Source of the DNA: a virus
Lineage: Duplodnaviria > Heunggongvirae > Uroviricota > Caudoviricetes
Strand: one strand, 5' to 3'
Length of the DNA: 43,851 nt
IMG/VR virus record: IMGVR_UViG_2531839640_000007
Part shown: one piece after another, positions 9,267-10,196 of the stretch
Position numbering within the stretch: the stretch's first letter is position 1
Layout: every line of letters starts with the position of its first letter
Notes under the pieces: model-generated
Seen by the model: only the letters and a program-made list of their open reading frames with translations
Database searches by the model: none
What the model was told of the DNA's origin: nothing
Translations under genes and position numbers: made by a program

Positions 9267-10196
9267 ATGGCAAACACTGCTGAGATATTCAATTTTCCAG
9301 TGCCGGATGCGGTACAAAAGGAGCCGCGCGTGGCAGATCTCGATGATGGTTATACGCGCATTGCAAATGAGTTGCTGGAAGCTGTGATGCTGGCCGGATT
9401 AACACAGCACCAGCTTCTGGTCTTTCTGGCTGTCATGCGCAAAACATATGGCTTTAATAAAAAACTGGATTGGGTTAGCAACGAGCAACTTTCCGAATTA
9501 ACCGGGATATTGCCGCACAAGTGTTCTGCTGCAAAAAGTGTTCTGGTAAAGCGTGGGATTTTTATTCAGAGCGGGCGGAATACCGGCATTAATAATGTGG
9601 TCAGTGAATGGTCAACATTACCCGAATCAGGTAAGAAAAATAAAGTTTACCTGAAAGAGGTAAATTTACCTGAATCAGGTAAAAAAAGTTTACCCACATC
9701 AGGTAAAGGCGTTTACCCGAATCAGGTAAACACAAAAGACAAACTAACAAAAGACAATATAAAACCTTTTTCGTCCGAGAATTCTGGCGAATCCTCTGAC
9801 CAACCAGAAAACGATCTTCCTGTGGTGAAACCGGATGCTGCAATTCAGAGCGGCAGCAAGTGGGGGACAGCAGAAGACCTGACCGCCGCAGAGTGGATGT
9901 TTGACATGGTGAAGACCATCGCGCCATCAGCCAGAAAACCGAATTTTGCAGGGTGGGCTAACGATATCCGCCTGATGCGTGAACGTGACGGACGTAACCA
10001 CCGCGACATGTGTGTGCTGTTCCGCTGGGCATGCCAGGACAACTTCTGGTCCGGTAACGTGCTAAGTCCGGCCAAACTCCGCGACAAGTGGACCCAGCTC
10101 GAAATCAACCGAAACAAGCAACAGGCTGGCGTGATAGCCGGCAAACCAAAACTCGACCTGACGAACACTGACTGGATTTACGGGGTGGAGCTATGA
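9267..10196 (+). CDS. O: Replication initiator O, chimeric: non-lambda N-terminal iteron-binding domain, lambda-type C-terminal P-interaction domain
   Basis: N-terminus MANTAEIFNF...VADLDDGYTR resembles lambda O; C-terminus ...KLDLTNTDWIYGVEL lambda-like; contains ori iterons; GGGAGG RBS before ATG at 9267. Confidence 0.9.
   Translation: MANTAEIFNFPVPDAVQKEPRVADLDDGYTRIANELLEAVMLAGLTQHQLLVFLAVMRKTYGFNKKLDWVSNEQLSELTGILPHKCSAAKSVLVKRGIFIQSGRNTGINNVVSEWSTLPESGKKNKVYLKEVNLPESGKKSLPTSGKGVYPNQVNTKDKLTKDNIKPFSSENSGESSDQPENDLPVVKPDAAIQSGSKWGTAEDLTAAEWMFDMVKTIAPSARKPNFAGWANDIRLMRERDGRNHRDMCVLFRWACQDNFWSGNVLSPAKLRDKWTQLEINRNKQQAGVIAGKPKLDLTNTDWIYGVEL
9618..9729. repeat. Replication origin iterons: five 17-bp sites TTACC-N7-GGTAA inside O
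   Basis: Repeats at 9618-9634, 9647-9663, 9666-9682, 9690-9706, 9713-9729, followed by AT-rich tract 9730-9776. Confidence 0.85.

Follow-up and report, generated by a model that had tools for sequence, protein, structure and literature searches.

A two-module O-type replication initiator with five TTACC-N7-GGTAA iterons and a lambda-type C-terminal domain in a DLP12-like lambdoid prophage

The window, by which we mean the whole 43,851-bp stretch of DNA that was analysed, carries a replication locus whose gene order, O-P-ren, is that of lambda, with the origin embedded in O and with O and P coupled through an ATGA overlap as in that phage. The O open reading frame is intact; it begins MANTAEIFNFP, terminates KLDLTNTDWIYGVEL, and is preceded by a Shine-Dalgarno sequence, GGGAGG-N5-ATG, at its start at 9267. 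The features that we assign to the locus are the following.

9267-10196, + strand: O-type replication initiator gene, 309 aa, with the replication origin inside (open reading frame list and sequence)
9327-9611, + strand: predicted N-terminal origin-binding domain of O, aa 21-115, Phage_rep_O, of a non-lambda specificity type (Pfam)
9618-9634: iteron 1, TTACCCGAATCAGGTAA, with inverted-repeat arms TTACC/GGTAA
9647-9663: iteron 2, TTACCTGAAAGAGGTAA
9666-9682: iteron 3, TTACCTGAATCAGGTAA
9690-9706: iteron 4, TTACCCACATCAGGTAA
9713-9729: iteron 5, TTACCCGAATCAGGTAA
9730-9771: A+T-rich tract, 42 bp, the presumed DNA-unwinding element and the transition zone of the mosaic junction
9773-9801, + strand: linker patch CGTCCGAGAATTCTGGCGAATCCTCTGAC, encoding SSENSGESSD, where high identity to lambda-type O genes starts
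9774-10193, + strand: lambda-type C-terminal domain of O, aa 170-309 (97% amino acid identity to lambda O)
10193-10894, + strand: lambda-type P, DnaB helicase loader (Pfam, PDB and lambda alignment)
10891-11193, + strand: ren homologue (RefSeq 'protein ren'; sliding identity to lambda)

In RefSeq (E. coli 55989) and in some phage records, O begins 90 nt upstream, with the in-frame ATG at 9177, which gives a protein of 339 aa and an overlap with the stop codon of a ydaT-like gene; the public protein cluster of O holds both start variants, 309 and 339 aa. We favor 9267 because the N-termini of the lambda, GZ7, and SEN34 proteins and the GGGAGG Shine-Dalgarno sequence fit it better, and from these comparisons the RefSeq start is probably 90 nt too early. 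Overlapping the start codon on the minus strand (9264-9292) is a sigma-70-like promoter, TTGAAT-17-CATAAT, with a TG extension; the lambda promoter pO (TTGAGT-17-CATAAT) lies at the equivalent position with nearly identical hexamers. Downstream of this promoter-like site, on the same strand, 9197-9229 can fold into a 14-bp bulged hairpin (MFE -24.1 kcal/mol, z -2.4) with a weak U tract, and the two together may specify a putative oop-like antisense RNA. At the equivalent spot, phi80 has the annotation 'M3 RNA, homolog of lambda oop'. When the whole window was scanned against Rfam, no family for an oop-like RNA was returned, the sole match being an IS009 element (RF02111; 43610-43808, + strand, near the right end; 227 bits, full length).

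Upstream of O lie a minus-strand gene for an S24 repressor and analogues of cro (YdaS-type) and cII (YdaT-type). Lambda differs in having its own cro and cII upstream, whereas phi80 has a similar layout with YdaS/YdaT-type analogues. The products encoded at the cro and cII positions (8341-9180) are a 76-aa YdaS-type and a 179-aa YdaT-type protein, both of which belong to families that Pfam labels 'toxins', and their sizes match those of the phi80 genes at the same positions (gene 30, 222 bp; cII, 543 bp).

The pattern TTACC-N7-GGTAA occurs exactly five times in the window, always on the + strand and all within 9618-9729, where 0.02 copies would be expected by chance and none of 100 shuffles gave five; the original prediction, which had placed five such iterons inside O, was exact on this point. 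No degenerate iteron with up to two mismatches flanks the array. The iterons start at intervals of 29/19/24/23 bp, the last three of which match the 20/24/23 spacing of lambda within 1 bp. The lambda iterons themselves are of the TCCCTCAAAACGAGGGA type, TCCCTC-N5-GAGGGA, in four copies; that pattern defines the ori-lambda specificity group (lambda, 434, 21, and 933W) and was not found in the iterons of the window. Conversely, the exact TTACC-N7-GGTAA pattern is absent from the lambda, 21, phi80, 933W, SEN34, P22, and D2 loci. The five iterons fall in two reading frames (0, 2, 0, 0, 2), encoding LPESGK-type peptides in one and VYLKEV or VYPNQV in the other, while the DNA sequence and its dyad symmetry are kept. 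Since the DNA is constant across both frames, we regard the iterons as DNA elements and reject the idea that they arose as peptide repeats.

Directly 3' of the last iteron, as had been predicted, the composition changes abruptly; 9730-9771 is 24% GC and 57% A on the + strand, compared with 51% GC over the whole window. In lambda and the window alike, the last iteron abuts the A-rich ACACAAAAGACA, and the motif ACACAAAAGACA...ACAAAAGA is conserved in lambda, 933W, SEN34, GZ7, and P22. Over 9730-9760, the window matches SEN34 at 30/31 positions, GZ7 at 28/31, and lambda at 24/31, so that the tract is closer to relatives of the N-terminal module (SEN34 and GZ7) than to lambda.

The two ends of the O protein have different affinities. 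Residues 21-115 match PF04492 (Phage_rep_O) with an E value of 9.9e-34 and 116 bits against a cut-off of 28.7, and the amino acid identity of this N-terminal domain is 47% to lambda, 82% to the Klebsiella phage GZ7, 65% to P22 gp18, and 60% to SEN34. This bears out the expectation that the N-terminal domain, together with iterons of another sequence, would set the locus apart from lambda. The C-terminal half, on the other hand, is homologous to lambda O aa 160-299, with 136 of 140 residues identical, and P is 97% identical to lambda P at the amino acid level and 94% at the nucleotide level, so the predicted lambda likeness of the O C-terminus and of the entire P protein is borne out at 97% for both. 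P matches PF06992 (Phage_lambda_P; E 7.8e-62) and, among solved structures, PDB 8v9t, a 'helicase loader' (E 8.8e-150), as well as PDB 6bbm; its start codon overlaps the O stop codon at 10193-10196. A comparison of the O sequence with solved structures gave no match. A single-sequence AlphaFold2 model of O (mean pLDDT 40) places helices only at residues 14-95 and 202-290, with nothing between, and as a prediction is too poor to confirm a two-domain-plus-linker architecture.

The lambda-type C-terminal domain occurs at 95% or more amino acid identity in 152 phage records with several N-domain types, and in every sampled row with an annotated neighbor, that neighboring gene is a lambda-type P. 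From this strict co-occurrence and the lambda literature, we infer that O would contact P through the C-terminal domain. Pfam has no domain over this region of O (9774-10193). Used as a tblastn query, the same region gives matches that are weak but significant, with 31-36% identity and E values as low as 1e-14. They fall in genes that are labelled 'DnaD-like replication protein' in Bacillus and Lactobacillus phages and in Vibrio phage genes annotated DUF4373, a pattern that hints at a distant relationship between the O C-terminal domain and DnaD-like domains.

The transition between the two halves was located by a codon-aware alignment with lambda, which gave the following nucleotide identities.

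9267-9617: N-domain segment, 52.7% identity to lambda
9618-9730: iteron array segment, 47% identity to lambda
9731-9772: A+T tract segment, 76% identity to lambda
9773-10193: C-terminal segment, 95.7% identity to lambda

The best single breakpoint falls at 9730, with 51.5% nucleotide identity to lambda O on its left and 94.0% on its right, and the maximum chi-square at the breakpoint is 207, against a highest value of 23.8 among 2000 permutations. At the amino acid level, residues 1-117 are 47% and residues 170-309 are 97% identical to lambda O. Identity thus steps from about 50% to about 95% inside about 40 bp, synonymous sites included, and by sliding identity the lambda-like block then continues from 9773 over the rest of O, then P, then ren, ending at about 11165. 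The original prediction had posited a recombinational junction inside O and had proposed alignment with lambda as its test; what the alignment yields is a discrete junction rather than uniform divergence, at a breakpoint that none of the 2000 permutations approached, next to iterons unlike those of ori-lambda.

High identity to lambda-type O genes sets in with the CGTCCGAGAATTCTGGCGAATCCTCTGAC patch, which agrees with lambda at 28/29 positions, with 933W at 29/29, and with SEN34 at 27/29, and the encoded SSENS(G/D)ESSD is kept even in phi80 gp15, whose overall identity is only 45%. These matches make it likely that the patch served as crossover homology. Because 9730-9760 resembles SEN34 and GZ7 and the sequence from 9773 onward resembles lambda and 933W, the comparison puts the crossover relative to lambda at about 9760-9773. 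The misc_recomb marks 39157^8 and 39165^6 in the lambda GenBank record align with the O junction; the copy of the record consulted carries no notes to them, and we take them to mark where lambdoid hybrids made in the laboratory crossed over. On the alignments, O is 'chimeric' only by comparison with lambda, and the direction in which sequence was exchanged is not assignable. Nor do the sequences identify a recent donor, as the lambda-like half differs from lambda by about 5%; that divergence points to an old, established, and very common allele and not to a recent event.

Other phages combine the same parts differently. Klebsiella phage GZ7 (OP114732), whose N-terminal O half is 78% identical to that of the window in DNA, has the same five iterons at the identical 29/19/24/23 spacing and the same A-rich tract; it differs in having an unrelated O C-terminus followed by an IstB/DnaC-type AAA+ loader gene, with no lambda P, and its relatives ST11-VIM1phi8.2 and RCIP0034 group with the GZ7-type O. 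Salmonella phage SEN34 has the more distant N-terminal domain noted above and TTAGC-N7-GCTAA iterons, but its C-terminal domain and P are lambda-type. P22 gp18 likewise has TTACC...GGTAA-like repeats within its gene and the conserved A-rich tract, but carries a third type of C-terminus, which is paired with the DnaB-type helicase gp12 and without a lambda P. The Stx phages 933W and P27 share the lambda-family C-terminal domain and P with the window at about 95% nucleotide identity, and six-iteron origins in this group illustrate that iteron number varies relative to lambda; 933W nevertheless retains the lambda-type N-terminal domain and iterons, both of which are replaced in the window. Two phages that had been suggested for comparison, 21 and phi80, proved not to match: phage 21 O shows no differences from lambda O in the alignment and is of the lambda type, while phi80 gp15, with TTCCCGAAAACGGGAA-type iterons at a spacing of 20/21/21, is of a third type and not that of the window. 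In Escherichia phage D2 (OM475427; L006 1501-2432), the O region is of the window type for its first 246 nt and continues with the remainder of a lambda-type N-terminal domain and lambda iterons. It is annotated as two CDSs, and reflects either a crossover that fell within the DNA-binding domain and seemingly disrupted the frame, or an error in sequencing.

The combinations in GZ7, SEN34, and P22 indicate that the iterons follow the N-terminal domain and that the C-terminal domain follows the loader, and in these sequence comparisons the two pairs assort separately across phages. The predicted swap of origin specificity with retention of the C-terminal half gains support from the assortment in GZ7 and SEN34, as far as sequence can speak to specificity. 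The same observations bear on an account without recombination, in which O would have descended as a unit and its N-terminal half simply diverged faster under unequal constraint. Such an account can draw on the capacity of N-terminal DNA-binding domains and their sites to co-evolve quickly, and on the residual homology of the N-terminal halves at 47% amino acid identity, but it sits badly with nucleotide identity that rises from about 50% to about 95% within some 40 bp, at synonymous sites as well. It also leaves GZ7, in which the same N-terminal domain and iterons go with a non-homologous C-terminus and a loader of the DnaC type, and SEN34, 933W, 434, and PhiR12, in which the same C-terminal domain and P accompany other N-types, without explanation, and we consider it to have next to no chance of being correct. 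Unequal rates cannot produce discordant module combinations, by which uniform divergence of O is effectively refuted.

Past ren, at about 11200-17400, the window is DLP12-like, with emrE, ybcK, ybcN, ninE, ybcO, rusA, ylcG, Q, and a porin gene. Over 4 kb this region matches phages PhiR70_1, PhiR34_1, 4A7, and Lambda_4C10, which share the O allele, at 93-97% identity. At about 11261-12233, emrE breaks off at about codon 63 (GCTTATGCTATCTGGT|ATATGCG...) and is fused into the 3' part of a ybcK-like serine recombinase gene. Both genes are intact at the same place in E. coli 55989 (emrE, 333 bp; ybcK, 1527 bp), indicating that the prophage in the window is internally deleted relative to 55989. With this deletion just downstream of an intact O and P, the prophage copy may be defective.

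The deletion also lends something to the view that the five repeats are no working origin, as does the fact that three of the repeats encode LP(E/T)SGK. On this view they either arose incidentally from a repetitive linker peptide, LPESGKK, or persist as a relic in a prophage that is defective and has ceased to replicate. We nonetheless hold this view to be very improbable. Two of the five repeats lie in another frame and encode different peptides, which indicates conservation at the DNA level; the position, dyad symmetry, spacing, and adjoining A+T-rich tract all mirror ori-lambda; and GZ7 retains the array at identical spacing despite being only 78% identical in DNA over the N-terminal half of O. 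Moreover, O and P in the window are intact and translationally coupled, and the same allele is present at 97-99% identity in deposited phage genomes.

Taken together, we put at roughly 90% the probability that the locus is the replication module of a DLP12-like lambdoid prophage that works in the lambda-like mode with a two-module mosaic O. By analogy with lambda, dimers of the O N-terminal domain would bind the five inverted-repeat iterons inside the O gene, and the resulting nucleoprotein complex would destabilise the adjoining 42-bp A+T-rich tract; the lambda-type C-terminal domain would then recruit the lambda-type P, which would deliver the host DnaB. The first module, consisting of the N-terminal domain and its cognate iterons, would set origin specificity, and the second, the C-terminal domain with P (and ren), would set the mode of helicase recruitment. 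The two appear to be joined in the A+T-rich/SSENSGESSD linker, a junction that would combine short DNA patches conserved among otherwise dissimilar O genes with a likely tolerant protein linker, and these properties suggest to us that the modules can be re-assorted by homologous or homeologous recombination and still function. The analogy rests on lambda, in which O dimers bind the iterons and bend the DNA and the adjacent A+T region of about 40 bp opens (PMC5043065), and in which origin binding resides in the N-terminal 162 aa of O (Wickner & Zahn 1986, cited in PMC2629481). Complementation by lambda O survives in-frame deletions within the high-AT region (PMC6022878), as would fit a tolerant linker at the junction.

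The allele is very common. Its sequence recurs at 100% identity in E. coli 55989 and in the outbreak lineage O104:H4, where it is annotated 'replication protein', and at 80% or more query coverage it is present in 2,368 of 5,426 complete E. coli genomes, about 40%. The N-terminal module alone occurs in 2,287 of these 5,426 genomes, compared with 1,325 for the lambda N-terminal module. The 90%-identity protein cluster of O, annotated 'replication protein O', has 7,825 members. Fifteen deposited phage genomes carry the O allele at 97-99% identity, PhiR34_1, PhiR68_2, 4A7, Lambda_4C10, 1W, 3W, Perceval, and Turner among them, and the presence of the full allele in such genomes suggests that this combination of N- and C-terminal halves is functional.

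By sequence, the iteron class is not that of lambda, 21, 434, 933W, phi80, or P22, and this elimination leads to the question of whether the allele is the classical phage 82 type, with an O82/ori82 N-terminal module, five iterons, and a lambda-compatible C-terminal half. Moore et al. (1979/1981) reportedly found five repeats in ori82, compared with four in lambda and phi80, and the number found here agrees with that. The nin region of the prophage is also of the DLP12 type (ybcN-ninE-ybcO-rusA-ylcG-Q), and phage 82 and E. coli K-12 share a rusA homologue, according to the title of Mahdi et al. 1996. Lambda-82 hybrids that crossed over within O are also viable, as the title of Furth & Yates 1978 indicates. 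Against these points stands the absence of any record named for phage 82 among the 16 phage records carrying the N-terminal module, and we give the phage 82 assignment a little less than an even chance. It is a matter of naming only; it is compatible with the two-module reading and would make the specificity a named and long-characterised one. The iteron sequence was found in none of the full texts that could be searched, and no ori82 sequence was found either. That the TTACC-N7-GGTAA iterons and their N-terminal domain instead represent an origin-specificity class distinct from the phage 82 type and never characterised biochemically seems to us unlikely, if by no means far-fetched. Were it so, no other lambda-P-coupled origin would be as common in E. 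coli (2,287 versus 1,325 genomes of the lambda type), and the fifth iteron, the upstream one set apart by 29-bp spacing, would be conserved across the class.

The mosaic structure of O is correct as originally predicted, but it is already known in principle, the modularity of O and the existence of hybrid O proteins having been reported in 1978-81. Hybrid O proteins whose N-terminal half matches ori and whose C-terminal half matches P go back to Furth & Yates 1978, Moore et al. 1979, and Grosschedl & Hobom 1979, and O domain swaps are routinely noted in later genome papers (PMC2629481, PMC8022706). The laboratory hybrids joined the N-terminal half and ori of one phage to the lambda C-terminal half near ori; the protein in the window differs from them in being natural and widespread.

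The locus has little significance beyond correct annotation. Its origin type is commoner in E. coli genomes than that of lambda itself, and genome annotations leave the iterons unmarked. Judged from its sequence, the specificity of this origin is probably incompatible with ori-lambda, but the P-dependent host requirements should be shared with lambda. These findings present a clean natural case of the classical two-module lambdoid initiator, in which the N-terminal domain and iterons form one unit and the C-terminal domain and loader the other, and in which the A+T-rich/SSENSGESSD linker would be the point of exchange in nature as it is in laboratory hybrids.
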